A DNA stretch of 63,947 bases, filler included, from Octopus bimaculoides (GCF_001194135.2; 6 parts of 4 records of this genome joined end to end with filler, not necessarily neighbours in it), one strand, 5' to 3'; positions 20,532-63,218 are shown, counted from the whole stretch's first letter. Numbers and translations are program-made. The notes: generated by a model from the sequence alone, not told the origin.

Positions 20532-21177
20532 CAAATATGAAATCTTCACCACGTTAAATCGCAACCTAACGGCAAATACACGAAGCATAAACGTTACGTA
20601 TATGCGGTTGATAATATATGTATACATCTATTGTTCGGGGTCACNNNNNNNNNNNNNNNNNNNNNNNNNNNNNNNNNNNNNNNNNNNNNNNNNNNNNNNN
20701 NNNNNNNNNNNNNNNNNNNNNNNNNNNNNNNNNNNNNNNNNNNNNNNNNNNNNNNNNNNNNNNNNNNNNNNNNNNNNNNNNNNNNNNNNNNNNNNNNNNN
20801 NNNNNNNNNNNNNNNNNNNNNNNNNNNNNNNNNNNNNNNNNNNNNNNNNNNNNNNNNNNNNNNNNNNNNNNNNNNNNNNNNNNNNNNNNNNNNNNNNNNN
20901 NNNNNNNNNNNNNNNNNNNNNNNNNNNNNNNNNNNNNNNNNNNNNNNNNNNNNNNNNNNNNNNNNNNNNNNNNNNNNNNNNNNNNNNNTAGAGGATATAT
21001 TAACCTCGTGAAGGGATGGTTTCATCCAAGGAAATACTAGTATTTTAAGGAATGAATTTCCTTAAAAAAATAGGCATATATAAATCATATAGTTTATTTC
21101 CATTTAAAAGAAGAAAAGAAAATGAAGATTAGGAAGTTAATAATTGTTTATTATTAACAACAAATTGTTCATCTTCA

Positions 21178-21275
21178 CTTCTTACAGCCGTTTCAATTAA
21201 TACTCAATAATTTCATTACAAATTTGTACATTAAATTTACATTTATGTGACATGAGCATAATTTCATCAGAGGAA
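21178..21275 (-). ncRNA. type I hammerhead ribozyme motif (mirror copy)
   Basis: Reverse complement of CTGATGA at 21264-21270, GAAAC at 21190-21194 and GTA at 21183-21185. Confidence 0.75.
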
Positions 21276-21325
21276 AAAAAGATGTAGCTTTGGCTATTAC
21301 ATGTGGGCTTATCAATTCATTTTTT

Positions 21326-21411
21326 TTCCTCTGATGAAATTATACTCATGTCACATAAATGTAAATTTAATGTATAAATTATTGAGTATTAATTGAAACG
21401 GCTGTAAGAAG
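21326..21411 (+). ncRNA. type I hammerhead ribozyme motif
   Basis: CTGATGA 21331-21337; stem II AATTATACTCA/TGAGTATTAATT; GAAAC 21395-21399, loop GGCT, GTA 21404-21406; stem I TTCCT/AGAAG with one mismatch. Confidence 0.75.
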
Positions 21412-21639
21412 TGAAGACGAACAATTTGTTGTTAATAATAAGCAATTATTAACTTCCTAATCTTCATTTTCTTTTCTTCTTTTAAATGGATATATATGTA
21501 CAGAGAGAGAGAACGGGGGAGAGAGCGAGAAAGAGGGAGAGAGAGAGAGAGAGGTAATTACGTGGATAAACAAATTAAATATAACAGGTTGGATTTGACA
21601 TACACGCATACACACACGCACAAATAGGATCAAAGATCC

Positions 21640-21865
21640 TTCCGCTCTTAAGGCTCTTAAGGCTCTTAAGGCTGTTTTTTCGGATTCTTCCCTGGATGTG
21701 ACACCGATCCGTCGCAGGATTACTCCTTAGTACCAGCTGAGTGGACTGGCGCACCGTGAAAAGAGGTGTTTTGCTTAAGAACACAACGCATCACCCGGTC
21801 CGGAACCGAAACCACAATCTCACGATCATAAGCGCAACGCCCTAAATACTAAATCAGTGCCTCCG
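21640..21865 (-). mobile_element. tRNA-derived SINE (family D)
   Basis: Minus strand reads GGAGGCACTGATTTAGTATTTAGGGCG...GGTTTCGGTTCC then TTGTGTTCTTAAGCAAAACAC. Confidence 0.7.
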
Positions 21866-21886
21866 TGCACACATACGTATACACAC

Positions 21887-21944
<58 letters not shown>

Positions 21945-21999
21945 TTATTTTGCTGTGGTCATTGTTTGGGCATCTAAAAGAGTATCCCTGCAACTATTC

Positions 22000-22500
22000 C
22001 TTCCATAATCTAGGTCTAGAGCCGTGTGATTCATGATTAAGTTTAAATCTGAACATTACAGCTTTCGGCCCCGACACCATGGGTTCCGGGATACAGTTAT
22101 CTGCTCCTCCACTTGGCCATATATTAGGTACCTCTCTAAATTAGAATAAATGAGATTACTGAGGGGGTGCCATTCCGGAAGCTTATGTTATTAAGACTGA
22201 TCTTTCTGCAGCCAGACAACTAAATCTAAGTTGTTTATAACCCGACCAAAATCGAGTGACCTAAACCCTTCGGGGGTTTTGAAATATTTCCGGGTATTTA
22301 TTGAGTTGGTGGATGATTGGGACGGTTTGTAAGGGACACATGTTGGGATTTGGAGTGTAACACATCAGACATCGTAGTTCTTTTGTACCACGTCAGATCT
22401 TTTTAGGCAGGTCGATGATTAAAGACGTTCTCACAGTTATATAAGGAAGAAGGTTGAGATTTTAGAATGATCTAGTCATTATTTCTAGCTGTTCCAATGA
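22000..22500 (-). mobile_element. possible decayed Penelope-like RT fragment
   Basis: Weak motif PEWHPLSNLI, resembling PLE GP.CPT.RLSNL.D; heavily degraded. Confidence 0.3.
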
Positions 22501-22914
22501 GCGCGTAGAAATTCTTTCGTTGTTGTTGTTGTTGATATTGAGGATGATAGTGATGACAAACTCTTATCAAAATCCGATCAAATTATTTAAGATGAAAACG
22601 TTGAGATATTGTATGTTTCATTATATCAAGATATCTACTTAAGTTTTATATAAATATTGTTAGAAATATCAATTTAAGAAAGAAAAGACGAAATGCAGCA
22701 TTATCAGGAATCGAACTGCCACCTTACAGCTTTGCAGGTGACTGTTTATTCTACGAACTAAATGCCAGTGATTCCTGCTTCACAAATTCGATATTATAAA
22801 TCTTTATTTTTTTCTGCTATTTTATCTCCACAAATTGGTCGGTTACTTAATGCCAGGAGGACAGGTATTCCGCTATTACACATGACAGTGAGATGCTTAT
22901 AATTATCTTTTTTT

Positions 22915-23281
22915 TTTATGCGCCCTTTTAAAGCCTAGCCAGGCTCATGGGCCCGGTTTTCCTGTTTCTATAGCGTATGTGTTCCCCCCAGCTGGACAGG
23001 ACGCCAGTCCATCGCAGCGTTACTCAAGAAACAGGAAGAAAGCGTGAGGGAAAGTTGGGGCGAAAGAGTACAATAGGGGTCGCCACCACCCCCNNNNNNN
23101 NNNCGTGAGGGAAAGTTGGGGCGAAAGAGTACAATAGGGGTCGCCACCACCCCCTGCCGGAGCCTCGTGGTGCTTTTGGTGTTTTCGCTCAATAAACACA
23201 CACAACGCCCGGTCTGGGAATCGAAACCGCGATCCTCTGACCGCGAGTCCGCTGCCCTAACCACTGGGCCATTGCACCTCC
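22915..23281 (-). mobile_element. tRNA-derived SINE (family C) with V/mermaid-like central domain
   Basis: Head GGAGGTGCAATGGCCCAGTGGTTAGGGCAGCGGACTCGCGGTCAGAGGATCGCGGTTTCGATTCCC has A and B boxes; the core is GCTGCGATGGACTGGCGTCCTGTCCAG. Confidence 0.85.
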
Positions 23282-23754
23282 AGATGTTTATAATACAATC
23301 AACATAACAGAGAAAAAATAAAGGTTTACGAAGAGAGAATGCTTGGTAATCTGTAGTGTAACTGGTGGCGCCCTCACTCGGCAAACAAGAGACGCAGGAT
23401 TCAAATCCCGTCAGTGGGCATGTTGTACTTCTCATACTTCATTTGGTACTTACATTGACTATTATGTCTAATACTATTTACATTTAACTCAAACTACTAT
23501 TATAGAATGTGGGATTCTGCGATGTATTATTCTACAGCAAAATGTCATGTGAGAAACTGAAGAAAAATGTTCAAATTGGTTCCAGTATTTTCATTATTGA
23601 ATATAGCAGAAAATAGTTGACATTATTCCAATATTTCTCAATAATTGAATCTACATTTTATCTTTGCCACAGAATTAAACTCTTTCTCTTAGAACCCAGC
23701 GCAGCTCAGCAGAATGAGAGTTTCCTCTGTCGTTTGTACCGGAAACATTCTTTT

Positions 23755-23973: not shown

Positions 23974-24013
<40 letters not shown>

Positions 24014-24321
24014 TAGTTATCGCCAAGCTAACATGGCACTCTAGGAAAAATAGGACGAATGCTGCCGTTGATTAGATCCAAGAGGCCATCGCCTCTAGCT
24101 AGCTATGTGACACACGAGACTGTGTCCATCCTCGAACAGAGGAGGTCATCCGCTTCCCCTTGCTGGTCTGGCATTTACAGACTAGTTTACCGCGAAACTA
24201 GTTATAATGGACACAGGCTCGTGTGTCACATAGCTAGCTAGAGGCGATGGCCTCTTGAAGCTAATCAACGGAAGCATTCGTTCTATTTTCCTGGACTGCC
24301 ATGTTAGCTTGGCGATAACTA
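24014..24321. mobile_element. MITE, 308 bp, ~105-bp imperfect TIRs, TTAA on both flanks
   Basis: TTAA|TAGTTATCGCCAAGCTAACATGGCA ... TGCCATGTTAGCTTGGCGATAACTA|TTAA; non-coding interior. Confidence 0.85.
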
Positions 24322-24394
24322 TTAATATCCAGTACCACTGCTGTAGTCTCCTTTAGAGAGACTTAGAAATGTTAATATTTATATATACACATAT

Positions 24395-28240: not shown

Positions 28241-29493
28241 CATTCAATGAAATTTAATGTAACAATATTGGAAAACCTTCTTCTTCCGTCAAGTGTCTTA
28301 ACAGAATGAGTGTATGCGTCTATTTAAATCGTACGTCTGCGCCATCTGCATGTGTACTGTTTTATGGGTGCGTGTCTGTCTCCGGTGGTTGCGTTAACAT
28401 TGTGTAACTGTTTAATGTGAAAGTCGATGACATTAAATCAGTTCGGTGTTGCTAAGCCTCAGAGCAGTCCTTACAGAGAAAACTAACTTTCACATCTTAC
28501 TTTTAAACATAGTGTATCTAGGGCTACATTATCCAGTGTTCTATTCCGTCTGTTTTGAGCATCTGATGCTCACTCTTCGCGGTTAACAATTTGAAAATCT
28601 CTTAAGACTTTCAGGATCGAATCATAAGTGACATTTCATGGAAAACAATTTGAGAATATTGAAAACAGATAAACACACTAAAACAAGTGGAAACTCCAGT
28701 CAGAAATAAAACCTTTATTTCAAATATGGGAACACCAAGAACGTCCCTGTTTTCTTTTTTTTTCATTATTATTATTTTTCAACATAAAAAGGAAATGGGA
28801 TTTCGGAATCATGACAAAAAAGGTAACGTCCAATAATAGCAGTTAAAATATTCTAGTAATAAACAAAATACACGGATACCTTTGCAGCAAAAATGAAAGC
28901 CACAATCGATATTGTTCTTCAAGCAATTTTGAAGCAATTAGAAGTAAAACCAGTGAATAAGGAACCAGGAGTTCGAACCTGACTTATTTTTTTACTGGTA
29001 CTGATAACATAGAGGTGCAAAAAGAAAGGGAGACCTTTAGTTTTAATTTTTTTCGTTATTTTTTTTTTATTTTAATATTTTGGTGTGGTGTTGGATTGTG
29101 GCTAAACAATTCCTTCAGATAAAATAGTGCAAAGATTATGGTAAATATTCATCAATTATTTCATATACATGTATGTATATTTATATATATATNNNNNNNN
29201 NNNNNNNNNNNNNNNNNNNNNNNNNNNNNNNNNNNNTTAATTAATTAANNNNNNNNNNNNNNNNNNNNNNNNNNNNNNNNNNNNNNNNNNNNAGAGTTAC
29301 CTTCTTTTAGATGAACAGCTAAAGTGCTGAAAGGTATAATTTGCAGCTGGTCCGTTGGTGTACCTGCAAGTGACCTTCAGGAGGCAATTCCCTGACGTGC
29401 TAATTAGCTCATAGCTGAGCGCCGGATACACACGCAAACACAAGCACATACACACGCAAACGTCTACGCAGAGACACACGCGCGTACACACAC

Positions 29494-30516: not shown

Positions 30517-30576
30517 TCTGGCGACGAGGGTTTGGAAGCTCACGTAAGTTATTTAACAATTTGTTCGTGATACAAC

Positions 30577-33500
30577 TTGTTAAATAATGGACGATCTATT
30601 AGCTTCTATACTACAGTTTCAGAAGCAAGAACAAGAGCAGCAACAGGAGTTGCAGAACTATTACAGCATCAACTACAAAAACATCAATTATTGGGGCTAT
30701 ACTCAAAGAATTCCAAAAATGAGGTAAGTTCGTTTTCGCCAGACGGTGTTTCGAATTCGATTAATGAATTCAGTTATAACCCAGAGGAGGGTATAACTTT
30801 TGCATCGTACTGCAGAAGGTATGAGAAGATTTTTAAGCAAGATTGCAAATCATGGTCGTACGAACAAAGAGTGATATTATTATTGCGAAAATTTGCTCCG
30901 TTAGAACATGAACGTTACCGTAATTTCATATTGCCCCAAAATCCCAATGAAATTTATTTTAAAGAAACAATAGAATTACTGTCTAACAGATTCGGTGATA
31001 AAACTTCTCTATTTAATACTCGAATGGAGTGCTGGAATATAACGAAAAGAGAGAATGATGATTTTATCACATACGCAGGAACATTCAACAAATTTTAAAC
31101 TCAAAGAACTTACATCTGAGATGTTCAAGTGTCTTATTTTGGTACAAGGCCTTATAGCAAGCATAGATACAGAAATTCAGGCAAGAATTCTTTCTAAATT
31201 GGAGCAAGTGAACCATGATCTAACCTTACAGTCCGTGGCAGAAGAGTGGTAAAGGATGGTAAAATTGAAACATGATGCAGAAAAAATTCAAGAAAAGGAT
31301 TCCTCAAAAATACAGATATGCTGACCAGAAACGTACAACCAATAAAGAGCGCCACGTCCTAATCCATGTTATGGATGTAGAGGTATGCATTTCAGAAAAG
31401 ACTGTCCATTTAAAAATCAAAAATATTACAGTTGCAAAAGAATTGGTCACAAAAGTTCACACTGAAGAACAAAATTACATAGGTCAAACATTAAAATTCC
31501 TAGAGTGCTCTCAACAGAAACAAAAATCGACTCCCAATAAGAAAATTCGTGCATGTAAAATTAAATGGAATACATATTAAACTTCAATTGGATGCTGGAA
31601 GTGATATTTCAATTATAAATAGGGACACATAGAATAAAATAGGGAAACCTATGTTGAGAAAAACAGCGAAATCTGCTCGTAACGTGACGGGCGACAAATT
31701 ACATTTCATAGGTGAAATGTGGACTAATGTCACATTTCGAGGGAAAACATACAAGGCGAAAGTCTTCGTCGTTAAAAATACAACCGATCTGTTTGGTAGC
31801 GATTGGTTAGAATTATTCGATTCATGGAACCTCCCCATAAATCTCTATTGTAAATCGTAAATGGTTGTCCCTCTAAAACTAATTCGTCAGAAGAGTTAAA
31901 GAGAAAATTTGAAAAGATATTTTCGCAAATACTCTCGGACAAACTAGGTCTATGCACAAAGACTGAAGCGTGTTTTGAATAAGATGATAACGTTACACCT
32001 GTGTTCAATCCTAATAGGAAAGTGCCTTTTGCAGCAAGAAAGCAAGTGGACGATGAGTTGGGTAGATTGGGAAAAAAACTGAATCGCTGAAAAAGTGGAT
32101 TACGCGAAGTGGGCAGCTCCGACTGTATGTATAAAGAAGAAAAATAACAAAATTAGGTTGTGTGCCTATTTTCCGACCGGTTTAAATGACTGTTTAAAAA
32201 TGAACAATTATTCACCACCGACTCCAGAAGATATTTTTATAAAACTAAACGGAGGAAAAATATTTTCAAAACTCGATCTGTCGGACGCATATCTGCAAAT
32301 CAAAGTAGATAAAAACTGCTCAAAGCTGTTAATGGTCAACACACACAGAGGTCTATACAAATACAATAGACTGAAGGTAGCACCTTCAATGGACGTGAGG
32401 TTGGCAGACTGTCAATTTGCTATTCCTTACCTTGATGACGTGTTAATCAAAACCGAATCACGGAATGAGCATATCGAACATGCGAAGAGGGTCGTTAAAA
32501 AAATTAAGGACTATGGTTTCACACTCAGTGAAGAGAAATATGAATATTTTTTGCCTAAAATAAAATACCTAGGTCAAATAATAGATAAGAATGGAAGACG
32601 TCTTGACCCATCGAGGGCGGACGCAATCAAGAATATGCCTCATCCTACGAATATACCAACATTTACAAGCTTTCCCTGGCCTAGCAAATTACTATCAACA
32701 GTATATTCCTAATATACATAAATTGAGAGCACCATTAAACGATTTACTAAAAAAAAAAAAGAAAAGAGAATTGGTCAACAGAGTGCCAAAACGCATTTGA
32801 AGACAAAGTAAATACTAATTTCCGAGTTGTCACTCGCACATTTCAATCCTAGAATGGATATTGTTGTAGCGCCTGATGCTTCGGAGTATGGAATAGGAGC
32901 AGTCTTGCTACACATGTATAAAGATGGAAATATGAAGCCAGTAATTCATGCTTCACGTTCGCTAGTAGCAGCGGAGAAAAAAGTATAGTAAGATAGAGAA
33001 TGAACCTCTATCGATTAATTTCACAAACTTTTACATGGTAGAAGTTCTTTGTTACAAACCAACCATCGACGATTACTATCAATTGTTAGATTGAAGAAGG
33101 GATTGCCTAACCATACTGTGGGCTGACTACAACGCTGGGGTACAATATTTCTGAACTACAGTTTTAAGATGCAATATATTCTGTCGAAGAAAATTGGTCA
33201 TGCAGACTGCTTATCGAGGCTAATTCCCAAGAGCATGAAACTGCTACAAGAGATCGTGATAACATCATTGCAGTTAGAAAATGAAGTAAGAAGTATTGTG
33301 TGTAATATAATCCAAGAACTGCCGGTGACAGTGCAAAATATAAAAATGAAATCCGTAGAAGTTATTTTACATTACAAAAATAGAAGAAACATCGAAAAAT
33401 AAGCATAATAAAAATGCAAATTCAAATAATTTCTCACTATGCGACGATATCTTAATGTACGTGCAGAGAGTAGTAGTACCAAGTGCACAACAGAAACGAG

Positions 33501-34100
33501 TATTGCAACAATTCCACTGTGGGCACCCGGGAATGTCCAGAATTAAAGCTTTAATGAGGAGCTTTGTCTATTGGCTAACCATGGACAGGGGCAATTGGTG
33601 AAAGCATGTAGAGGCTGTTCGTTGGAAAGCAAAGGACCACCACTAAAATATCAATTGTGACCGGAGACTGAGAGCCCATGGTCCAGGATACATATCGACT
33701 ACGCTAGACCAGTGAACGGCGCATACTCTCTAATCGTTGTGGATAGTTACACAAAGTTGTCAGAGGCATGCACATTTAATAAACTCAGCAAAGACAACAA
33801 TAAAGTTCCTGCTCGAGTTATTTGCTCGATACAGTGTTCCAGAAACTTTAGTTTCAGATAATGGAACACAATTCACGGGATATGAATTAAGAAATTTCTG
33901 CAAAATATATGCCATTAAAGCACATCTTTACCCCGTACTACCACCCGAGATCAAATGGGCAGGTGGAAAGATTTGTCGACACGTTCAAACCAGCTCTAAG
34001 AAAAGCTAGGAACGAGCTAGATAATGACGAGGCACTAACGAAATTTTTGAGAGTATAAAGAATAACGTCAAATCCAAATACTAATTCAGGGAAGTCACCA
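30577..34100 (+). pseudogene. gypsy gag-pol pseudogene with many frameshifts and stops
   Basis: Gag EGITFASYCRRYEKIF; protease LDAGSDISII (~31590); RT YLDDVLI; RNase H DASEYGIGAVL (~32875); integrase zinc finger HCGHPGMSRIKALMRSFVYW and core PETLVSDNGTQFT. Confidence 0.9.
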
Positions 34101-34669
34101 GCAGAGTTAATGTTCGCGTGTAAAATAAAATTGATCTTCGATAAATTATTGCCAGGAAAATATACATATAATGGAAAAAAAAAACATTTGATGGAAATAC
34201 AAAAAGTATTATAAAACATTTCGAAGTAGGAGATAAAGTCCATCTTACAAACCACAAAAATTGTAAAGAAAGTTGGGAGGATGACTGTGTAATCAAAAGA
34301 TTAGGTAACATGATGTAGTTAATTAAAGGACAACTTTCGGAACATAAGAGACACCTTAACAAGTTAAAGATGAGACATACAGAAGAACGAAGGGTAATAC
34401 CAATGGAAGTCTTCTATGAGATGTTTGGAGTGCCAGCACCGAGAGATATTGAACTCCCTAGAACTAGTTTCAGAAAACGAAAACAGACTGAATATCAGGA
34501 TGTAACACCTAAACGAAAGGATATTAAATTTTCAAAGAAGAAAAAAAGAGTGCCAACAAGAATGCTTAGTACTACGAACAGAAAAAGTGCTGTGTGCAAC
34601 GAAAAATACTACCTTAAAATTCGGGCACCAATTAAGATACATCAGCTAAAGAAAACAAGAAAAAAGAGG

Positions 34670-39680: not shown

Positions 39681-40015
39681 TATTTTGCCAACAAAATAGA
39701 AACTTCTAGAGCATTTAAAAATTCATTCATCTGTATGTACGTCAGCATTTGTGTCTATACACAAATGTATGGGGAATAAATGATTTTTCCTTTATGAGGT
39801 TTTTTCACGCTAGCTATTTGATAAATTCTTGTAAAAGATTTTATCCTATATATATATATATATATATATATATTTCGTATGTGTATTTCGTGTGCAAGAT
39901 TCTTGATGTGGATACGTGTGTTGAAAGAAATACAATTAAACCTTGGGAGAGGCATTATGCCGGTAATAAACACACGCACTGGTTCAGTCCTTTATTAATT
40001 TGTATAGTTTTTAAA

Positions 40016-40147
40016 ATTATTTCATTGCACTCTTGCAATCTCTTCAGTAACTTGTCTCTCCACTTCCATTTATTTTGAATATATTCAAAATAAATGGAAG
40101 TGGAGAGACAAGTTACTGAAGAGATTGCAAGAGTGCAATGAAATAAT
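40016..40147. repeat. perfect 132-bp palindrome with no spacer
   Basis: Centre at 40081/40082; the arms are exact reverse complements. Confidence 0.95.
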
Positions 40148-41145
40148 TTAACAAAAAACTATATACGGANNNNNNNNNNNNNNNNNNNNNNNNNNNNNNN
40201 NNNNNNNNNNNNNNNNNNNNNNNNNNNNNNNNNNNNNNNNNNNNNNNNNNNNACAAGTATGTATGTGTGTGTGTATGCTTGTGTGTCTGTGTTTGTCCCT
40301 CACCATCGCTAGACACTCGATGCTGGTGTATTTACATCCCCGTAACTTAGCGGTTCGGCAATCCAGCATATGCCCCGTGCTTATACATTCTAATTTTTCA
40401 AATCTACCGTGCAAGCGCAACTCCTTGTCAGCAGTAAATAAAATTGCCGGCTTTTTCAATCGAAAATTTTCCATAAAAAATTATCAATAATTAATAATAT
40501 CAGGGTAATAAGAAATATTAGAAATTTCTACTACCAGTGGCCCAGCGTGGAAAAAAATTTAGTCAATAGACTATATATTATTCATATAAATACAGTGTAC
40601 ATTTAAACACATAAGAGGTATCCATCATAGGATTCCTTGCACACTAGAAGGAACAGCTAAAATCCAAACCACTGTTAGGGATAAACTTCGAAGGGAATGA
40701 AAGATAAAAACATTTACCATCTATCTCCTGGACCATGGTTTCAGACTTTTTTTAGCAAATAAAATAATTTGCCACGCGAAATCTTCGTCAGCAGGTACAC
40801 CTAGATTAAACATATAAGCACGAGACAATCCAGCATATGCCCCGTGCTTATACATTCAAAATTTTCAAGTCTACCATTAGACCACTGGTAGTAGAAATTT
40901 CTAATATTTCTTATTATCTTATGATATTTACTTTGTATTATATTATACTCATTTATTGTGCTTTTAATTATTAATTTTTCTATATGTGACAGTGGATTTT
41001 CATCGTTGAGTCCATGAACCTTGGTTCTTTTCCCTAAAACTATATATTTATATATATTTTACTCTGTGAAACTTAATTTAATTTTAATTTTTAATAAATT
41101 GATTTTAATTGAGTTTTTACCTGTAATTTTGGATTTTATCCCTAA

Positions 41146-46618: not shown

Positions 46619-46624
46619 TGTGTG

Positions 46625-46657
<33 letters not shown>

Positions 46658-49059: not shown

Positions 49060-49490
49060 ATACGTTAAGATCACCAGCGTTTTCTTACACACACGCACCG
49101 TCGTTTTGGGATCACTACGACTTTGTTATCTTCCCTTCTTCTTAGCTCTCCTGTGTGACCCTTCTGTCCGGCATTCGCCATGATAGATCGCTGACCGCTG
49201 GACATATTTTTTCCTCTCCTTGTTTCTCTCCTTGTTTCTTTCTGTGTTCCTTTCTGTGGAAGAGCGTAGGCTCGAAACATTAAAGACTTTTTTCAATTCC
49301 CGAGCGTTATACTAATACATCTATTTGTTTTCTACACCACCTGTCTTCGTCTGTTGTTTTTTTTTGTGAATTCTCCCAATATATATATATATAGGGAGAA
49401 TTCACAAAAAAAAAACAAAAACAAAAGACGAAGACAGGGGTGCAGAAAACAAATAGATGTATTAGTATAACGCTCGGGAAGTGAAAAAGT
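49060..49490. repeat. interspersed repeat with terminal inverted duplication around (AT)n (~49287-49490)
   Basis: CGAGCGTTATACTAATACATCTATTTG...GTGAATTCTCCC-(AT)n-GGGAGAATTCAC...GATGTATTAGTATAACGCTCG; same family as 14455-14575. Confidence 0.8.
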
Positions 49491-49543: not shown

Positions 49544-50932
49544 CGCACACACACATACACACGCACACACACACACACATATGTATATATAAATCATGTC
49601 CCTCTGTAAACATCTATCTATCTATCGATCGATCCATCCATCCATCCATCCATCCATCCATCCATTCATCAATATATATATGCATGCATGCATTCATTGA
49701 TATGTATACACATCATATGTAAACTCTTCCGTGTGTGATAAAGTGAGTTAAAAACTTCGAAAAAAACGAAAGTTTTCTATACGAGTGTGTAAATTCCTTA
49801 TAAAGAACTGGAAGATAAATCTATGTGAGATAACTCCAGGAACATCAGCTGACTGAAACTTTTAGAAAAAAGATAATTTAATCGGGTGTGACTTCGCTCT
49901 TTAAAGTCAATTTCTGAAAGTAAGGTATATGTTTCAGCTTTATTAAACCTCCTTAGCAATCAATAGAGATCAATATGTATTGAAGTTCTATAATCATTGG
50001 AGTTATACCCCTTTCTAATTATTGGAGTTGTTTCCCTTGTTCTCTTCTGCATTTCAAAACTACTAACGGATTGTGTTGTCTTGTAATTTCAAAGACAAAT
50101 TAATTCACCAAAATTCTTTATTTTACTATGTTAAATATGTAAGACTATAAAGCATTAGTGTATTGAATATATAGAACTCCAAACAAGTAAAATATCTATT
50201 TATCAATCTACTTACATATCAACTAAACCACCCCCACTTTTTACATTTTATGTGTGGGGTGTCTATATGTATGTGTATGTGTGTGTGTGTGTGTATTATC
50301 GTGTGTATACACAACACATACACATACAGATATACTTATATGAATACAAAAATAAATACATGCATACACACACACATGTGTATATATATATATATATACA
50401 TGTATATATATATATATATATATATNNNNNNNNNNNNNNNNNNNNNNNNNNNNNNNNNNNNNNNNNNNNTTAATTAATTAANNNNNNNNNNNNNNNNNNN
50501 NNNNNNNNNNNNNNNNNNNNNNNNNATATACATGTATGTATGTATGTATGTATGTATGTATATATACAGAGAGAGAGAGAGACATACATACATACATACA
50601 TGTATATGTACAGAGTAAGACAGAAGTACATAGACAGATGGATAGATATAGATATACACACTTTCATAGAAATATATATATATATTAGTGTGTGTATGTG
50701 TGTGTGTAAAGGTTGAATTATATTTCGTCCTTTAATTTGGAGGATTCCAAAAAAACGATTTCTATTAAAATTCTTCATATTCGGCTGGCAGATTACTGGC
50801 GTAAGTTTGCAAATATTAAAATAATACTTGTATACGGTGTGTTATGTGAATTTATGGAGAGTTATTCCATAAAAAAAAAAAATTGTTAAGAATAGAGACG
50901 AGAAAATGTTCAAATTTGAAAGAATTTTAATT

Positions 50933-51047
50933 CATGCATCCGATCGTTTCAAACAGCGATATTAAAAGCAGCAGATTCATGGTAGAATAATGAAATTAAT
51001 TTGATTGAATTAAATTAATTGTATATCACTGCTCTCATCAGCGGAAG
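50933..51047 (-). ncRNA. hammerhead motif, probably inactivated (cleavage triplet GGA)
   Basis: Reverse complement of CTGATGA at 51035-51041 and GAAAC-GATC at 50942-50950, followed by GGA instead of GTA. Confidence 0.55.
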
Positions 51048-51719
51048 AAGTATGAACACATAAGTATTATTACAGAGGTCTTAATAAAGGAAATAGCAGA
51101 GAATAATTTGGGATATCCATATTTATCCTTATGTAAATTACAAGCATCATAATAAAGAATGTGAGTCTACTTATGGATAAATTAAAACTAATTCAACTAA
51201 AGGTTATTCAAAAATATAAGTGAAAAAATTTTATGAGACGTTCCCTCTATAGATGAGTAAGTAGATAAGTAATTCAAACTCCAAATAAGTCATGTATTTA
51301 AGGAGGTTTTATAGAAATGTCCAATGGAAGAGCATAGTTATCTTTGAATTAGGAAATGACTTGAGAGTTATGTATGGTGTGTATTTATAAAAATTGTGCG
51401 TGAGAATGAAATTAAACTAGTTAATGTAGTATTTATGCGGTTGCTTTGATGCAAGGAAAGCAAGTATTAAGAACTAGAATTTCTTAAAGAGCTATGTAAA
51501 ATGGAGTTGTGTTAGTGTAAGAACCACATTCGACTGCTTGTATTAAATATAAGGTAAACAATTAAAAAAGGGATTAGTTGTAAATATTACAGATTTAGAT
51601 AGTAAATACTTGTGGCTATAAATATTTAAAAGAACGTTCAGAGGTTTACTGAGGTGTGTAGTAAACTGACAATAACAAAGTAGGGGGGATAATATAGCTA
51701 GGAAAGAAAGGTACTAGTT

Positions 51720-51920
51720 TAATTGTTTCAGTCATTTGACTGCGGCCATGCTGGAGCACTGCCTTTAGTCGAGCAAATTCACCCCAGGATTTTTTTTTGT
51801 AAGCCTAGCACTTATTCTATCGATCTCTTTTGCCGGACCGCTACATTACGGGGATATAAACACACCAACATCGGTTGTCAAGCGATGTTGGGTGGGGGAC
51901 AAACACAAACACACAAACAC

Positions 51921-51953
<33 letters not shown>

Positions 51954-52100
51954 CGACGGGCTTCTTTCAGTTTCCGTATACGAAATCCACTCACAAGGCT
52001 ATAGTAGAAGACACTTGCCCAAGATGCCACGCAGTGGGACTGAACCCGGAACCATATGGTTGGCAAGTAAGCTACTTACCGCACAGCCACTCCTGCGCCT
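51720..52100 (-). mobile_element. SINE family A, full length, in the spacer of the inverted repeat
   Basis: Head GGCGCAGGAGTGGCTGTGCGGTAAGTAGC on the minus strand through to the GTCAAATGACTGAAAC tail. Confidence 0.92.
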
Positions 52101-52828
52101 GAAAAAATTTTTAATTATAAGTATCAATATGGAATACATTAAATATGCATAGGTATAAATTATAAGTGTGAGTCAAGAAGCTAGCTTGGTATAAAGTGAG
52201 AAGGAAGTATATAGTAATAGTATACAAGTAATAAATATTCAATTAATAGCAGGTTATTGTGCATTACGAATATAAGTATAAAATTATGATTATATTTAAT
52301 ACATAGAAACCAATATTAGTTCTTAGACTAATAAAACACCATTTTACCTTTCTCTTTTCTACCTCTAATACGTATCTCTATTTCTACCCGTAATACTTGT
52401 TTTCGTTGCATCCAAGTAGCCACTTATATACTACTTTCACTAGTTTAATTACATTTTAACGCAACTTTTGTTTTTAAATACACACCATATCTAATATTTT
52501 TTATAACTCTCCAGTTATTTCCTAATTCAAACATAACTATGCTTTTCCATTAGACATTTCTATGAAACTTCTTTACATACATGACTTATTTGGAGTTTGA
52601 ATTACTTACCTACTTGCCCTTCTATAGAGGGAACATCTCAAAAAAACCTTTTTGACTTATGCATTTAAATAACAGTTAGCTGCATTAGTTTTAGTTTATA
52701 CGTAACTACACTCACATTCTTTATTATGATGCTCATAATTTTCACAAGGATAAATATGAATATCCTAAATTATTCTCTGCTATTTCCTCTATCAATTCAT
52801 CTGTAATAATATTATTTTGTTCATAATT

Positions 52829-52943
52829 CTTACACTGATGAGAACAGTGATATATAATTAATTGAATTTAATCAAATTAGTTTAATTATTCTACCATAAA
52901 TTTGCATGATATAATGACGCTGTTTGAAACGATCGTATGCAAG
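52829..52943 (+). ncRNA. type I hammerhead ribozyme motif
   Basis: Stem I CTTACA/TGCAAG; CTGATGA 52835-52841; stem II GAACAGTG/CGCTGTTT; GAAAC 52926-52930, loop GATC, GTA 52935-52937. Confidence 0.75.
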
Positions 52944-53001
52944 AGTGAAAATTCTTTCAAATTTTAACATCATCTATTTTCCATTTTTATGAGATACGTC
53001 T

Positions 53002-55520: not shown

Positions 55521-56371
55521 ATGGGAAATGAGCACGTCGTAAGAGGAAGGAATAAAGGCAAAAAGAGATCTGTTGGTCCTCGCGGTGAACACGGCAAATG
55601 CCTACATGTCAACAACAGACAAACTGAGAGTGGAAGATTTTGTAAGGCAAAATTTCTCAAGCTTGGTCAACGACCTCTTCCTAGATCATTGCTGCAACTG
55701 TTAGGTGAGTGTTACTTATAGTTCAAGAATATTGCAGTGTCACAAGGTGAAATAACGCATGGCAACTGACTACATTATTGTGGTAGTCCTTTCTGTTTTT
55801 CGCCATGGACACTGTGATGAAATCAGCAGACTGTAGACCAAATTCAGCCTGCACTAGTTCAGCAATAAGAGATTTCTCAGATGACCGGACTCTAGCATCA
55901 TCAGCAGTTCATGTTGCAAGACCGATCCTTCAAGGACTAATGCAACTCGTACCACAGGCTGGAAGAGAGCCCCTTCAGCATCTCATCAACAACGTCCCCA
56001 GACACTTAGCTGATGGATGTTACGTTGATACATTGAATACGTTCCTAAATCATTATGGAGTAATATTAACTGATACTCAGTGGAGCAAATACTACCTCAG
56101 TGATGAGGCCCTCATTTCGCGGAACATAAGACAATCAGTCAAAAATCAACATATGTGCTTAGTCCCCACAATCACAAGCAGACAGCTGCGTGTTGATCTC
56201 TCAGAATTGTTACAGTTCCCAAAGACCATCATTCCAACTGCACACCGCTCAGATATAATGTACGATCCAAATTCTATATACTTTGGCCTTCGAAGGACAA
56301 ATGATGGGGACTCATGGGAAGAAGCTTGCCAAACAGGAGGTACTGGTAAAGCAGTGCATGTATGTATATAG
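55521..56371 (+). CDS. unidentified candidate coding region, two putative exons (55521-55704 and 55830-56359/56371)
   Basis: 188-codon non-repetitive ORF 55805-56371. The TTAG|GTGAGT donor at 55704/5 joins in frame to the CAG|AC acceptor at 55829/30. Possible downstream donor CAT|GTATGT at 56359/60. No recognised domain. Confidence 0.4.
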
Positions 56372-57915: not shown

Positions 57916-60737
57916 CAGCAAAGAAACATCTTTGACTGGATAATTAGTAAAGCGAAATTTGGCTAAACCTAATGGAAAATCGAACTGTCTCTACTTGTTA
58001 TTCATTGTCAAATACATTGATCTTATTTTTACTTTTTTCCTAGAAAATTATCAGAATCGTTTACTTCTATCCCCCGCGGATTTTTCTGCTTGTAATGGGA
58101 TTTCAGTGTGTTAGCCAAGTCTTATTGTAAGCAGCCAAAAACTTTTGGAAAACTTCCCGAGATTGTTTGATGTTAATGGCTAAGTTTTCTTTATACACAT
58201 ATGATATAATGTATATATTTTCATCACTGGTAACAACGCAGGGTTGTCCAATCAGTAATACATTATTATCTTTGTTTTTGAATCACTGGGAAATTGAAAG
58301 AGTAATTAAGGTGAAAGTATCGTTGTTACAGTTTCAATAGGCATGCAACATGTATTATCCTGCGTATAATTCAACTTCCCTAAACTTTAGATAAGGCTGT
58401 TAGAAAAAGAAATTCACTGTCCTACTTTGATAAAATGGCAGAACAGATATAATAATGGAAGACTTAATAATGAGTCATACATAAGAGAATCAAATATTTT
58501 CCTCGGCTCAATACCAACATGTTCTAACGTCACAAACTAAACTCGCCGTCCCAACCCCGGCTAATATTGGCATTTAATACTCTATAAATAGAAAACTCTA
58601 GAAACATCGAAAGTGATAGAAATGTAGCAGAGAATCTGATCTTGCCAGTCGGGGCGGTCGCCCCACAGTACCACACAGCTCCCAGTATGAAACAGGGGAA
58701 ATAGCAAATGTGTGTGCAGTTTAATCAATAGTAAGCTGCGTTTCAGTATTCATTGACACAAGTAAATGCTGTTCCATGCTTAGCATTGTAAATATTAATT
58801 CCGTCTGAGTAATTTCCTAACTGTTCTGGACTATCACAATATATTAGTACTACATATTGCATGAGATATAGATGTGTAAATGCTAATTTTCTCCCGCTAT
58901 TGTTCAAAGTTCATCTGAGTGAAAAAAGGATTTTAAATAACTTAATTCAATATAAATTCCTTTCAGGGATAGTCGCTATCCTCCCTCCGCTCCGCATGAA
59001 TTTGAACAATCATAATATTTTTTTGTGATCTACGGTACAACTTCGAACCCTAGAATCAAAATTCACTTAGCTATTCACAAATGGCTCACTTTTGCGTTGT
59101 TCGATATTCTGCTAAACAGAGTTATTTGGAGTATTTGTTAGACCTCTTTATAGTTCAATGTACACACATAAAACAGTGGGAAATAATAAGTTTTGTATCG
59201 GGAAACTAATTGATGATCATTTTGTTAAATTTCTATAGAAAGACTGAAACATCCGGTGAGACAACAATGGATGAACTACTGTTCAGATGTTTGTTCAAAA
59301 CAAAAGCGAAATGAAAATCAGAGTCACGTTGCAAAAGATCTAAAAGTACAAAAACCATAGCAAAAGAAACAAAATAACACTATATCAAATGATGGCAATT
59401 GTGAAATATATATCGAAATTCTTGTTAGAACAGAATAAAATAAGAACTAAAATCAACATTGTAATATTGCTTGGGAGCAAACATATTTGTTAAAACCATA
59501 AATATATCCTTAATTTAATAATAGTTACCAAAGTAACATTTCGATTGTGTCTTTATTAACTCATACTCAATAAATGAAATCAACTAAACATTATAACAAA
59601 ATATGCGTATTAAATATAAGCCACTTTTCTAAACTATTCTTACTGAGTTAAATGGAGACCATTAAGAATCGGTATTCGTGCAATATATTTAAGTTCGTAC
59701 GATTCGCAGAACATACGTGCCAAAGATGTTTAACATAGTATTCAACGTGAACTAACACTAGTGTTGTGATTTCATTGATTTCAGTTGTGAATTAATGCAC
59801 TAATGTTGTACCTATTGTCAGTGAGGTAAAACTGATGGAAACGCTGAGGACATAAAATTTAAAGTGGGCTGTGTATCAGAAAGTGCGAATACTATGGAAA
59901 ATTTCCAGCACAGAATCGATTTGACCATTTATCACTCACATCATTTGTCGAAAGAATTCCTGAAAATCAGATAATATTTTAAATGGGAAAGGAAAACGAG
60001 AGGACAGAATACAATTTAAACGAGACGGCTAAGAACTTAGTAATGAAAGACAGATAGGTAAGAATGAAATATCAAGAATCACAATATATAATACGATTTA
60101 GGTTTGTCGTCGTTAACGACCAAACTATGCTGCTTAATGAAAGAGGAATGTAAAAATAGTGTAGTTACAGAGAATTTGTATTGCTCCACATTTGCTTTCA
60201 TGGAATAATGTTTGGTTTCGAATTCAATATTTAAAATCATTATCATTCAAGTAAAACTATTTGGATGTAGGAAACAGACGTGATGTGCGTAAATTGTTTT
60301 CTTACGTTCACTCAACGGGTTTGAATTTGAAGACTTTCGAATGTTGATAATGCGAGTGAAATTACATATAGCTGATGCAATATGTAACTAACTTAATTAC
60401 AAAATTATAATATAATTTCATCAATTATATTACAATTTTAGCAGAATTAGTTATAGGATGAGTAACTATCAGCATGAAGTACATCTTTTCTATTTATTTT
60501 TAAATCGCTGTTGAATGAAAATAATCGTGGGTTATTAGTAGAAACAAACATGAATATTTATGAAGTATACTATTTTGAAGGAAAATATTGGATTTCACTT
60601 ACTGTCCTTCCTAAAATTACTGTCTTCATTTCAAGAAGTTAAAGAATTGTATATAGGAGAGTTGATTTCAGTAACATTAAGCATACTTCGTCTATAATGA
60701 CGAGAAGCCAAAACAAAATGATTAATGTAAGGTTCAG

Positions 60738-60957
60738 AAATATAAATGCTGTACTTTGACGTGTCGTATTGTTTTTCGTAATAATTATCTTACAATATAA
60801 AACTTCAAAACACACCAAGCTGATGTGAAGGATTCCCATGAAGTTTGCCGCAAAAGAACATACATACAGATGAAGGCAAATTGTAAATAGGGGAAGTGTC
60901 GGCAAAGCTGAAGGGGCAGAAGCGGGAGCAGCAACAGCAGCAGCAGTAGCAGAACAA

Positions 60958-60992
<35 letters not shown>

Positions 60993-61006
60993 AGAAGAAG
61001 AAGAAG

Positions 61007-61041
<35 letters not shown>

Positions 61042-61382
61042 CGGCAACAACAACAACAACACCAACAACAACACCAACAACAACAAGTGGCAGGGGCGGC
61101 GCTAGGAGCCCCAGGAGCAGCAACAGCAGTGGTAGTGGGTGTAGCAGCAGTGGAAGCAGTAGTGATACTAGTAAGTAAACTGTACACTCCGCTTTCCAAC
61201 GCGCTGCCACGCCATTGTATGCACTTCCCCTATTTACAATTTGCCTTCATCTGTATGTATCTTGTTTTGCGGCAAACTTCATGGGAATCCTTCACATCAG
61301 CCTGGTGTGTTTTGAAGTTTTATACTGTAAGATAATTATTACGAAAAACAATACGACACGTTAAATTACAGCATTTATATTT
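60738..61382. repeat. inverted repeat with 161-bp arms (60738-60898 and 61222-61382) around (GAA)n(CAA)n
   Basis: AAATATAAATGCTGTA..TAGGGGAAGTG versus CACTTCCCCTA..TACAGCATTTATATTT; high identity by eye. Confidence 0.9.
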
Positions 61383-61614
61383 GAGATCCTAAACTTCCTC
61401 CGCACTTTCGCGTTCGCGCACGAATGTTCACTGTCGCTCTCGCTCGCGTCCGCGGACGAAGCTGTCAGCTTGGTGGCTGTCACGGACCGGACTCCGCTTT
61501 CATGCGCCTGCTTGNNNNNNNNNNNNNNNNNNNNNNNNNNNNNNNNNNNNNNNNNNNNTTAATTAATTAANNNNNNNNNNNNNNNNNNNNNNNNNNNNNN
61601 NNNNNNNNNNNNNN

Positions 61615-62040
61615 CCTGACTGGCCTTCGTGCGGGTGACACGTAAAAGCACCCAGTACACTCTCGGAGTGGTTGGCGTTAGGAAGGGCATCCAGCTGTAG
61701 AAACTCTGCCAAATTTAGATTGGAGCCTGGTGCAGCCATCCGTTTCACCAGTCCTCAGTCAAATCGTCCAACCCATGCTAGCATGGAAAGCAGACGTTAA
61801 ACAATGATGATGATGATGATCATCATCATCATCGTTTCTAGGACTACAAGAGTTTCTACAGCTGGATGCTCTTCCTAACACCAACCACTCCCGGTAGTGT
61901 AGTGGGTGCTTTTACGTGTCACCAGCACGAGGGCCAATATATATGTATGTATGTATAAAAAGTACCTCGCTTGGCAACAGGTGGGGGTTGGCGTCAGGAA
62001 GGGCATCCGGCTGTAGAAAACTTGCCACACGAATAGCGCT
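61615..62040. mobile_element. cluster of three SINE pieces with RTE-type 3' tail (+, -, +)
   Basis: GTTGGCGTTAGGAAGGGCATCCAGCTGTAGAAAC and tail CCCATGCTAGCATGGAAAGCAGACGTTAAAC(GAT)n; inverted partial copy at ~61840-61930. Confidence 0.8.
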
Positions 62041-62069
62041 GCGCATATCTATATACACTTTTTTTGTAG

Positions 62070-62260
62070 GCGCGGGCATGGCTGTGTGGTTAGGAAGCTT
62101 GCTTCCCAGCTACATGGTTTCTGGTTCAGTCCCACTGCGTGGCACCTTGGGCAAGTGTCTTCTGCTATAACCCCAGGCCGACTGAAGCCTTGTGATTGAA
62201 TTTGGTAGGCAGAAGTTACTGCCGCATGTATATATGTCTGTGTATGTGCTTGTGCCTCTC
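62070..62260 (+). mobile_element. SINE family A, 5' half
   Basis: GGCATGGCTGTGTGGTTAGGAAGCTTGC...GGTTCAGTCCCACTGCGTGGCACCTTGGGCAAGTG. Confidence 0.88.
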
Positions 62261-62434
62261 CGAGAGAGAGAGAGGGATACATATACAGGTTGCAGTGAAT
62301 AAACTGTCCGTCTGAATTATGCAAAGACGAAAATAACACTGACATCTCCTTTTAACAAATATATTTACCAAAATTACATAAAAATATCTTGAAATGCTAA
62401 AGAGTAAATTTATTCAATAAAATTGCCATTAGCT

Positions 62435-62620
62435 TCAACCATAGATGGAACAGGGACAACTGACGAAGGGGTGTACTCTTTATGTTGCATGTCTCGTTTC
62501 TCTGTTTGTTTTTTTCGTTGCTCGAAGAAAGTTCGTTTTCTGTTTTCGTTTCTCATTGCGTTTAACGTGTTTTTGATGTCCTGTACCCATATATGCATGT
62601 ATGTGTACATATATATGGAG
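62435..62620 (+). repeat. second copy of the repeat at 14200-14420
   Basis: GGGACAACTGACGAAGGGGTGTACTCTTTATGTTGCATGTCTCGTTTC. Confidence 0.75.
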
Positions 62621-62678
62621 GTATGCACATATATGTATGGATATATGCATATATCTATATATTATTTATATTATATAT

Positions 62679-62711
<33 letters not shown>

Positions 62712-62757
62712 AGAATTTAAGGATTGGAGAAAACGCATGTTATAATTGCATACTTTA

Positions 62758-62841
62758 TTCCTACATATGTTTCAAAGGATTACAACCTGTGTGATCCATA
62801 GGGATCTTTGATATTAAAATTGTAACCTTCTCATCAGGGAA
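62758..62841 (-). ncRNA. type I hammerhead ribozyme motif (mirror copy), intact core
   Basis: Reverse complement of CTGATGA at 62831-62837 and of GTA at 62762-62764; same sequence as the plus-strand copy. Confidence 0.85.
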
Positions 62842-62896
62842 AGCATGGGAATCATCTTAAACGTAAGACATTATGACCGATTATGATTCCCATGCT

Positions 62897-62980
62897 TTCC
62901 CTGATGAGAAGGTTACAATTTTAATATCAAAGATCCCTATGGATCACACAGGTTGTAATCCTTTGAAACATATGTAGGAA
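62897..62980 (+). ncRNA. type I hammerhead ribozyme motif, intact core
   Basis: Stem I TTCC/GGAA; CTGATGA 62901-62907; stem II GAAGGTTACAA/TTGTAATCCTTT; GAAAC 62965-62969, loop ATAT, GTA 62974-62976. Confidence 0.85.
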
Positions 62981-63218
62981 TAAAGTATGCAATTATAACA
63001 TGCATTTTCTCCAATCCTTAAATTCTTAAATATACTCAAATACCCAAAATTTCAAGGAGTTCCTGCCTTAAAAACAGGAGCTAACCACAGTTATTTTGTG
63101 TTCTTTGCTACATTAGTTTCTATTAACCCATTTATTCTATCAGAAGAATTTTTATTCATTAAGATAGAAGAAATACACATAATTATATATATATATATGT
63201 ACCCCGTTGTTGTTTCAG

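Follow-up and report, generated by a model that had tools for sequence, protein, structure and literature searches.

Minimal hammerhead ribozymes are encoded in the pLTRs of metazoan Penelope-like elements (PLEs), and the parts of Cervera and De la Pena (2014; PMC4209133) that bear on them describe opposite-strand pairs, separated by 100-700 bp, in Schistosoma mansoni and in a PLE from Cotesia. The portions of Craig et al. (2021; PMC8557442) on such elements describe inverted 5'-truncated copies, a two-ended tail and (TA)n targeting in Hydra, Naiad and Neptune PLEs, as well as Penelope-13_HM, with a hammerhead on both strands, and they list Hydra and Naiad families in octopus. Dimeric PLE hammerheads are covered in the section of a review (PMC6765202) that deals with Lunse et al. 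2017, and the non-LTR retrozymes of animals, as outlined in excerpts of PMC7229834 and bioRxiv 10.64898/2026.07.22.740005, are arranged head to tail in tandem, each unit having its own ribozyme, and pass through circRNA intermediates. Self-folding repeats, lizard Penelope and frog Harbinger among them, are named as hyper-editing substrates in passages of Porath et al. (2017; PMC5625713), where octopus gives the strongest hyper-editing signal yet stays outside the repeat-level analysis.

We analyzed a window of 63,947 nucleotides, filler included, from Octopus bimaculoides (GCF_001194135.2; six parts of four records joined end to end with filler), for which an earlier note had reported six hammerhead motifs in three inverted repeats. 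All six are present at the reported positions, and every figure in that note is correct. Each repeat has a minus-strand motif on its left arm and a plus-strand motif on its right arm, with CUGAUGA cores at 21270- and 21331+ (repeat 1), 51041- and 52835+ (repeat 2), and 62837- and 62901+ (repeat 3). The three repeats are unrelated in sequence, as had been said of them (no mutual blastn similarity; E 0.05, word 7). The insert between CUGAUGA and GAAA, put at 57-84 nt in the note, measures 69 and 57, 84 and 84, and 57 and 57 nt in the same order. The triplet is GUA throughout except for GGA at 51041-, which matches the single mutated triplet noted before; the self-complementary, two-pair stem III is ACGGCUGU (self-complementary via two G-U pairs), ACGAUCGU and ACAUAUGU in repeats 1, 2 and 3, and the plus-strand cuts are predicted after 21406, 52937 and 62976, again as given earlier.

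In repeat 1 (21095-21494, inverted by blastn), the left arm (21095..21281, minus strand; core 21270-21264; GUA; predicted cut after 21183) is flanked on its left by a gap and has a 69-nt branched stem II that holds a 12-nt insertion relative to the right arm. The right arm (21320..21494, plus strand; core 21331-21337; 57-nt stem II) ends at a TA/GA microsatellite, 88 nt beyond the cut. Repeat 2 (50887-51552/52290-52989) has inverted arms that match at 79% by blastn. The left one (50887..51552, minus strand; core 51041-51035) carries a stem II of 84 nt whose basal helix is 12 bp long, and the right one (52290..52989, plus strand; core 52835-52841; 84-nt stem II) has about 545 nt of non-coding sequence 5' of the core and ends 52 nt past the cut, at (TA)n. 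Between these arms lie one or more dispersed SINE-like repeats (51712..52107), of which there are many copies in the window.

Repeat 3 (62704-62855/62883-63034, 99%) consists of a left, inverted copy (62704..62886, minus strand; core 62837-62831; predicted cut after 62762), whose 3' end adjoins (TA)n, and a right arm (62883..63034, plus strand; core 62901-62907; 57-nt branched stem II). The 27-nt spacer between the arms is the 5' part of the left copy, as its family-level read depth and loose ends at 62883 and 62886 indicate. A 3' extension of the family of about 150 nt (63035..63187, plus strand), delimited by DNA read depth, ends in (TA)n, and repeat 3 likely sits in an RNF10 intron directly upstream of a spliced exon (63219..63317, plus strand; approximately residues 568-600 of 780; spliced loose ends at 63218 and 63317). 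Absent from the earlier note are a fourth long-stem unit and a fourth head-to-head repeat. The former (40359..40928, minus strand; core 40791-40785; 42-nt stem II; stem III ACCAUGGU; GUC) contains a 50-nt direct repeat 467 nt apart, a partial tandem, with an inverted 47-nt piece on its 5' side. The latter (40003..40163; cores 40116+ and 40047-) has an identical head-to-head layout but lacks the long stem II: its 17-nt inserts give the ordinary short stems of minimal motifs, with an imperfect stem III.

The head-to-head layout is no novelty: it is already in print as an inverted 5'-truncated PLE copy with hammerheads on both strands (PMC4209133, PMC8557442). We consider it likely that the units are short non-coding copies, truncated PLE ends with a long-stem hammerhead near the 3' end, and that their pairing is a by-product of insertion with the ribozyme switched off. 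Support for this reading comes from the occurrence of the motif beyond chance with stems that lie outside the search filter, from the short-stem pair at 40003-40163 with the same layout, and from the unit at 40359-40928 with its partial tandem and inverted piece. Under this reading, a second, 5'-truncated copy would likely be joined in inverse orientation during insertion into (TA)n, giving the head-to-head pair, and a PLE reverse transcriptase/GIY-YIG protein would act by mobilisation in trans or by truncation.

The recurrence of the motif was evaluated against 1000 block-wise dinucleotide shuffles. A strict motif (the core plus GAAAC-N4-GU-H with a palindromic stem III, 30-100 nt apart, stems not tested) occurs at 6 sites in the window versus a mean of 0.009 per shuffle. 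These sites, which make up four independent units, are five of the six motifs reported earlier plus 40791-; the motif at 51041- is missing because its GGA triplet fails the filter by design. When stems I and II were tested, all six sites passed and none of the 1000 shuffles did. We regard it as extremely improbable that the motifs arose by chance in AT-rich DNA or that the palindromes are assembly artefacts. The whole-motif folding energies are unremarkable relative to shuffles (z 0.07 to -1.25), which counts in favor of chance; taken by itself, the insert is more stable than its shuffles in three of the six tested (z -2.3, -2.5 and -3.4) and near the shuffle level in the other three (z -0.5 to -0.9). 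The assembly is a gappy one from short reads, and no contig among those listed spans the whole repeat-3 stretch, which counts in favor of an artefact; against this, paired arms are not identical but carry substitutions and indels, with 17% divergence across the 663 aligned columns of repeat 2 and an indel of 12 nt between the arms of repeat 1, and the right arm of repeat 2 is present, with 0.84-0.91 of its words, in 10 runs from 4 studies. No RNA run was among the matches listed in that search, which is neutral either way.

The type I order of CUGANGA, GAAA and NUH is intact in six of the seven long motifs, the exception being 51041- (GGA), and stems I, II and III can all form around the core. 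Stem I is weak in repeats 1 and 2 (2 bp, a mismatch, then more), and the base of stem II is a stable helix of 8-14 bp across the four units. The conserved G10.1-C11.1 closing pair is absent from all four units, with A-U or G-U in its place, and complementarity between loops I and II is confined to AU-rich runs of 3-7 nt. Four different 8-nt palindromes serve as stem III; as a monomer this stem has only 2 bp and a computed energy of +2.4 to +3.1 kcal/mol, and a dimer helix is possible, at -7 to -11 kcal/mol for the intermolecular form. As in the minimal hammerheads set out in the relevant sections of PMC4209133, the motifs are of type I with a short stem I, a palindromic stem III suited to dimers and high sequence variety between families; the GUA/GUH triplets with palindromic stem III also agree with the motifs tabulated in PMC8557442. 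They differ in lacking the G10.1-C11.1 pair and, mostly, an extra base after A9, and above all in stem II. The descriptor given in PMC4209133 allows a stem II of 3-7 bp with a loop of 3-10 nt, with listed inserts of about 25 nt or less, whereas the inserts here are branched and 42-84 nt long. The observation that the long stem II is unlike the minimal form thus extends to all seven long motifs; the pair at 40003-40163 conforms to the descriptor. Hydra-1_Obim has an insert of 22 nt, and the only long inserts in the table seen from PMC8557442 are two spike-moss PLE-X motifs (about 45-55 nt), flagged there as deviating.

The search with Rfam hammerhead models suggested by the earlier note returned no match even at E 10 for the four motifs tested, and no hammerhead among the best 150 of 221 Rfam matches on the window. 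The novelty of these motifs is a branched stem II of 42-84 nt in four sequence-unrelated units, beyond published descriptors and missed by Rfam; their self-cleavage is a predicted activity. In searches of the open-access literature on type I hammerheads with long or extended stem II, on octopus hammerheads and on edited inverted PLEs, no account of the variant turned up, and Lunse et al. 2017 may contain long-stem variants. Because this size class is invisible to standard searches, genomic hammerhead counts, and claims of PLE groups without hammerheads, may be underestimates. Among the remaining Rfam matches, those to miRNAs are driven by microsatellites, and weak C/D snoRNA matches stem from the CUGAUGA word and score far below gathering.

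Dimer cleavage between the two arms is not available, because the arms are on opposite strands and each transcript has one sense ribozyme. The ribozyme may be relevant only in tandem masters, in which two same-strand motifs could pair via the palindromic stem III. Nor does the term retrozyme, taken strictly as tandem units with a ribozyme in each, apply to the three repeats, which are inverted and have a single sense motif on each strand; they share with the non-LTR retrozymes of the excerpts above a non-coding sequence, a type I hammerhead, PLE derivation, a length of hundreds of nucleotides and a high copy number. True non-autonomous retrozymes, in which short monomers from tandem masters are cut by the long-stem ribozyme and the resulting unit-length RNAs circularise and reinsert, with head-to-head copies as side products, are in our judgment unlikely, and would largely be a special case of the truncated-copy reading. 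The unit at 40359-40928 re-enters its own upstream sequence after 467 nt, within the size range of animal retrozymes; it is the one unit that shows a partial tandem, and it has one motif. The 700-nt arms are non-coding, a few DNA joints jump back from 63201 to 63048 or 63169, and the core is apparently conserved in the repeat-3 family, in which the three DNA variants listed for the motif fall at N7 (62905, 30-36%) and at the unpaired insert positions 62930 and 62949. On the other side, none of the window's units carries two motifs on the same strand, and the joints listed for the repeat-3 family include none from the 3' end back to the cut site. RNA ends at the predicted cuts, proposed as a check, were sought at one site, and none is listed at 62976/62977 in two runs of unstranded cDNA, a weak source for cleavage ends. 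A lizard PLE hammerhead is also reported to be without RNA ends (PMC11167929).

In the computed head-to-head hairpin, all 19 core and stem III positions are paired, and the energy needed to free the ribozyme from the left arm is 116 kcal/mol in repeat 1, 137 kcal/mol in repeat 3 and 64 kcal/mol in repeat 4. With read-through from a host promoter (here probably within RNF10 pre-mRNA), the antisense arm is predicted to be made first, whichever strand is transcribed. The sense motif would then be buried by the antisense arm, and the ribozyme would therefore be off and the long duplex an ADAR substrate; on this view the head-to-head pair is an insertion by-product and not a two-ribozyme device. 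The same order of synthesis bears on a long stem II that makes the ribozyme an active monomeric or protein-assisted one, cutting host pre-mRNA (the RNF10 intron) co-transcriptionally before the hairpin forms. Retention of core, stems and GUH in four unrelated units and the stable stem II base fit such a cutter, and a PLE hammerhead is protein-assisted in vitro (PMC11167929). We nevertheless find it very unlikely, given the early antisense arm, the full pairing in the hairpin, the instability of stem III in a monomer and the unconvincing loop-loop partner (AU-rich runs of 4-7 nt). RNA depth also shows no step across the cut at 62976 (268 to 264; 293 to 324).

The absence of a reverse transcriptase (RT) from the arms, noted before, is borne out by the 700-nt repeat 2, whose arms have stops in common in every one of the six frames and differ by mismatches spread evenly over codon positions (40/39/35), giving no coding signal. 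There is no relevant Pfam match for an RT or GIY-YIG remnant in 12 frames of the arms; a single match over 15 stop-masked frames is spurious, and an open frame in the repeat-3 3' extension has no homologue in a protein search, a weak negative. An ORF for a telomerase-like RT and GIY-YIG is thus missing in cis, as expected for truncated or non-autonomous copies. The Penelope-like origin that had been proposed is favored by architecture (inverted pairs without an ORF), and the part of it that concerns an RT-bearing parent or pLTR homology found no counterpart: no RT-encoding partner was found for the units, and none of the octopus Naiad and Hydra consensus sequences examined has these motifs. 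With no RNA ends seen at the one cut examined (62976) and no RT-bearing parent found, membership in the PLEs is argued from architecture and not from homology. The Naiad/Chlamys/Hydra consensus files gave no match for 18 stem III motifs and four longer ones, in a search where line breaks can hide matches. That the units are the missing Naiad hammerheads found no support in these motif searches or in the consensus ends of octopus Naiad elements; the 3' ends of Naiad_Obim and Naiad_Ovul in PMC8557442 are unlike these units. In a metagenome scan, a 22-nt family motif matched one contig, which otherwise shows no similarity to the window, so that the match is ascribed to chance. At 37 kb lies a PLE-like relic for which protein searches returned no match, also a weak negative.

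The inverted 5'-truncated copy at the 5' end, the two 3' ends and the (TA)n flanks resemble those of Hydra, Naiad and Neptune elements as covered in PMC8557442, and differ from them in the lack of an ORF and in the spacing of the 3' ends (about 150 nt versus 30-40 nt in the canonical PLE tail). The layout is seen in four pairs in the window, with the motif in sense 52-88 nt from the arm end in long-stem units, 11-14 nt in the short-stem pair and about 210 nt from the long 3' end in repeat 3. Reads were examined for one of the four units, the repeat-3 family (two DNA and two RNA runs). Loose ends in (TA)n beyond 63034 occur in all four runs, and DNA depth is about 1e6 up to 63182 and about 50 past 63216, which marks the second, longer of two discrete 3' ends. 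The inversion joint is variable, with at least 14 DNA joints tying 62855-62886 to points between 62909 and 63093. These observations make it highly improbable that the units are MITE-like or foldback DNA elements that captured a hammerhead in their arms, to which the near-perfect arms, TA flanks and high copy number would otherwise be congenial, as would the hammerhead-free inverted repeats that are also common in the window. The family runs 150 nt past one arm, so the arms do not delimit the element; copies differ in their inner junction, and the right arm of some begins downstream of the motif. Variable 5' truncation with fixed 3' ends is already indicated in this family, and four unrelated units each carry the motif at the distances from the arm end given above.

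Summed contig depth is 0.77-1.07e6 over the repeat-3 motif versus 47-61 on the exon, a rough ratio of 13,000-23,000 that is not itself a copy number; the family has roughly 10^4 copies. It is conceivable, if doubtful, that several non-autonomous families derived from Penelope, as yet undescribed and in one case of about 10^4 copies, reside in octopus genomes, that their active hammerheads are hidden from descriptors and Rfam by a 42-84-nt branched stem II, and that head-to-head insertion silences the ribozyme in transcripts of the host and accounts for a measurable part of the exceptional A-to-I hyper-editing in octopus. The layout and the PLE-hammerhead link were already known, and hammerhead activity here is predicted. 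What would be added is a simple explanation of how intronic ribozymes of this kind can leave host RNA uncut and, for the animal whose hyper-editing signal is strongest, a very abundant self-folding repeat as a named substrate of editing. ADAR editing of long dsRNA from repeats is also what the available passages of PMC5625713 describe, with lizard Penelope massively edited; the difference is that an octopus repeat family is the named candidate here.

The prediction that the arms form an ADAR substrate in a heavily edited lineage, the host being an octopus, is matched by an excess of A>G and T>C changes in RNA only in the repeat-3 family, at up to 42% per site versus at most 0.6% in DNA. These two types account for 53 of the 98 places that change in one RNA run and 57 of the 100 in the other, versus 4 of the 23 in either DNA run (Fisher p 0.001-0.002). 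Some A>G changes may be alleles of a few over-expressed copies, because the RNA and DNA samples differ and 9 of the 40 rows listed (75 further rows lie beyond these) are RNA-enriched changes of non-editing types. RNA joints to the "opposite strand" were dismissed as mapping effects of the palindrome. Editing is established for the family and not for this locus, since unique intron depth beside the element is 0-1.5 reads. The head-to-head duplex is likely edited by the cell. ADAR prefers sites without a 5' G, and of the 11 A>G rows among those listed, whose levels are 10-42% in RNA and do not exceed 0.21% in DNA, 10 are without a 5' G.

The six type I hammerhead motifs predicted in the earlier note, arranged in three inverted repeats, were all recovered where it had placed them by a sequence scan of the window. 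Repeat 1 (21095-21494) carries cores at 21331 on the plus strand and 21270 on the minus strand (inserts between CUGAUGA and GAAA of 57 and 69 nt, respectively), repeat 2 (50887-51552/52290-52989) at 52835 (+) and 51041 (−) (84 nt each, with GGA replacing GUA in the latter), and repeat 3 (62704-62886/62883-63034) at 62901 (+) and 62837 (−) (57 nt each). Pairwise comparison detects no sequence similarity among the three repeats, in agreement with their description as unrelated. A strict scan for the core, GAAAC-N4-GU-H and a self-complementary stem III, with stems I and II left out of the filter, found 6 sites in the window versus a mean of 0.009 over 1000 shuffles; stems I and II are present at all six sites and in 0 of the 1000 shuffles. 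With the seventh long-stem motif that the scan turned up (core 40791, minus strand, 42-nt insert, GUC), the six sites fall into four independent units. Predicted cut sites lie after 21406, 52937, 62976 and, on the minus strand, 40731. A looser earlier scan gave 6 sites versus 2 matches in 200 shuffles. A short-stem scan gave 4 sites versus a mean of 0.16, adding two solitary minimal motifs and, at 40003-40163, one more head-to-head repeat, the fourth. Folding energy by itself is unexceptional for the hammerhead motifs, and the evidence for hammerheads is the motif, not stability.

In all long motifs, CUGA(U/C)GA leads into stem II, whose basal helix has A-U or G-U as its closing pair and bears one or two side hairpins; GAAAC, four palindromic bases, GU, and then A or C come next. 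As a hairpin within the monomer, stem III has a computed energy of +2.4 to +3.1 kcal/mol, and in an intermolecular helix one of −7 to −11 kcal/mol; an unstable monomer and a stable intermolecular helix are a dimer signature. The long stem II does differ from the minimal form, as had been proposed: it spans 42 to 84 nt in the octopus motifs, whereas the published descriptor of Penelope-like element (PLE) hammerheads allows at most about 26 nt (PMC4209133), and the Rfam hammerhead models miss the long-stem motifs (4 motifs searched). Among the inserts examined, only two spike-moss motifs (PMC8557442) are comparably long. A branched stem II of 42 to 84 nt in animal PLE hammerheads was not found in the openly accessible papers searched. 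The long-stem hammerhead is a putative ribozyme variant that looks undescribed.

The head-to-head layout is a real feature and is already known. Opposite-strand hammerhead pairs 100 to 700 bp apart are described in Schistosoma and in a Cotesia PLE (PMC4209133), and Penelope-13_HM is listed with a hammerhead motif on each strand (PMC8557442). PLE insertions often carry an inverted 5′-truncated copy and terminate at either of two 3′ ends, and (TA)n is the target of Hydra, Naiad, and Neptune (PMC8557442). If neither copy is truncated so far as to lose the motif, a head-to-head pair would result, and in a transcript of either strand the antisense arm would come first and a single sense motif after it. 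The computed hairpins leave none of the 19 core and stem III positions unpaired, and releasing the ribozyme from them would cost 64 to 137 kcal/mol. The arms therefore cannot be dimer partners. The buried ribozyme is thus predicted to be off and the long duplex to be an ADAR substrate; dimer cleavage, if any, would need tandem masters. In the unit at 40359-40928 (−), its own upstream 50 nt recurs after 467 nt and an inverted 47-nt piece lies on the 5′ side, an arrangement that amounts to a partial tandem plus inversion.

The suggested PLE origin is favored by this architecture, the one ground on which we infer mobilization by a PLE protein, but a parent ORF was not found by Pfam, by a homologue search with the 3′ extension frame, or in octopus PLE consensus files. 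The repeat 2 arms (700 nt) are 83% identical over aligned columns, have 10 to 14 stop codons in common in every one of the six frames, and lack codon periodicity; Pfam found nothing relevant in the repeat arms.

Reads from 4 of 24 listed runs (two of DNA and two of RNA), originally found with repeat 2, were aligned to repeat 3 only (62826-63330). Summed contig depth is 0.77 to 1.07 million over the motif versus 47 to 61 on the neighboring exon, a ratio of 13,000 to 23,000 that is not a copy number and puts family abundance roughly on the order of 10^4. High depth includes the repeat 3 spacer and reaches about 63187, and therefore the element extends about 150 nt past the arm. Family copies run into (TA)n at one of two 3′ ends, 63034 or near 63190. 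On the 5′ side, loose ends at 62886 show that most of them reach beyond what is present at the repeat 3 locus. At least 14 DNA joints connect 62855-62886 to points at 62909-63093, and some of these points lie 3′ of the motif. The inversion junction is variable, which fits 5′-truncated insertions and not a MITE. Among the DNA variants listed (about 15 of 23 places), those in the motif affect N7 and two bases of the insert that are unpaired. A G-to-other change was counted at 63080 only, and the core G residues are therefore invariant at the 5% level. A 22-nt match of contig L001 (5001-5022) to the family was rejected as chance; that contig is unrelated and has an LTR-retrotransposon-like pol.

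A>G and T>C changes account for 53/98 and 57/100 of the changed places in RNA versus 4/23 in each DNA run (P = 0.001 to 0.002, places taken as independent). For at least 11 of the A>G changes, the share is 10 to 42% in RNA and no higher than 0.21% in DNA (at 62995, 41% and 42% versus 0.03% and 0), and at least three T>C changes reach 8 to 19% versus at most 0.6%. The RNA and DNA came from different samples, the RNA libraries were unstranded, and a likeness floor of 85% excluded the most heavily edited reads. RNA-enriched changes of other types (at least 9, among 40 rows listed and 75 not listed) indicate that a few loci are over-represented. Since unique intron depth beside repeat 3 is 0 to 1.5, the RNA reads stem from the family, and the editing evidence is at the family level: the expected double-stranded ADAR substrate is supported for the family rather than for the repeat 3 locus itself. 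Heavy editing is reported for a lizard Penelope and a palindromic frog repeat (PMC5625713). The RNA ends expected at the predicted cut site (after 62976) did not appear: two unstranded RNA runs have no listed pile-up and no depth step there, and therefore most sampled molecules are uncut. A lizard PLE hammerhead is likewise reported as mostly uncut (PMC11167929). In one run, 43 RNA reads join a common flank inside stem II at 62943 (a single expressed copy truncated there), and 21 and 44 RNA reads run past 63198 with partly shared sequence, possibly from a longer master copy.

Both RNA runs show splicing of an exon at 63219-63317, which aligns to Octopus sinensis RNF10 (92% over 38 residues). 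No other RNF10 exon, including the upstream junction partner, was found in the window (1-63218 upstream), and repeat 3 is therefore intronic; this absence implies either an intron longer than 63 kb or exons concealed by gaps. Unless exons hide there, the other hammerhead units are probably intronic too, so plus-strand motifs would be sense on the pre-mRNA. In each gap (6819-6918, 13720-13819, 29193-29292, 50426-50525, and 61515-61614), two runs of 44 N flank a 12-nt AT linker, an assembly convention that gives rise to false long-range inverted repeats in the repeat search.

A decayed retroelement at 36900-39650 (+) has fragments that resemble, by eye, Hydra-clade PLE proteins (RT and the C-terminal endonuclease end); neither Pfam nor word search nor phmmer produced a match, so the label is tentative, and no intact hammerhead lies downstream. 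By eye, the fragments at 30570-34680 (+), 41500-42360 (−), and 47245-48225 look like a pol of the gypsy type (RT with YLDD, integrase) and relics of two Tc1/mariner transposases. At the 3′ ends of Naiad_Obim and Naiad_Ovul (PMC8557442), GAAAC precedes CUGAUGA by about 25 nt in a type II-like order, with stems not convincing by eye. A 194-codon open frame at 55787-56371 (+) has an ordinary amino-acid composition. Scans also found single minimal hammerhead motifs or relics on the plus strand at 26889, 49254, 8908, and 62460; the first two are one family (13-nt insert, one core change each), and that at 49254 lies just upstream of an inverted repeat at 49289-49488. Further inverted repeats, in which these scans detected no hammerhead, are at 24007-24328, 45798-46660, 60730-61390, and 61621-61936. 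Local inverted repeats number about 9 in 64 kb, which fits reports that octopus has a high potential for dsRNA.
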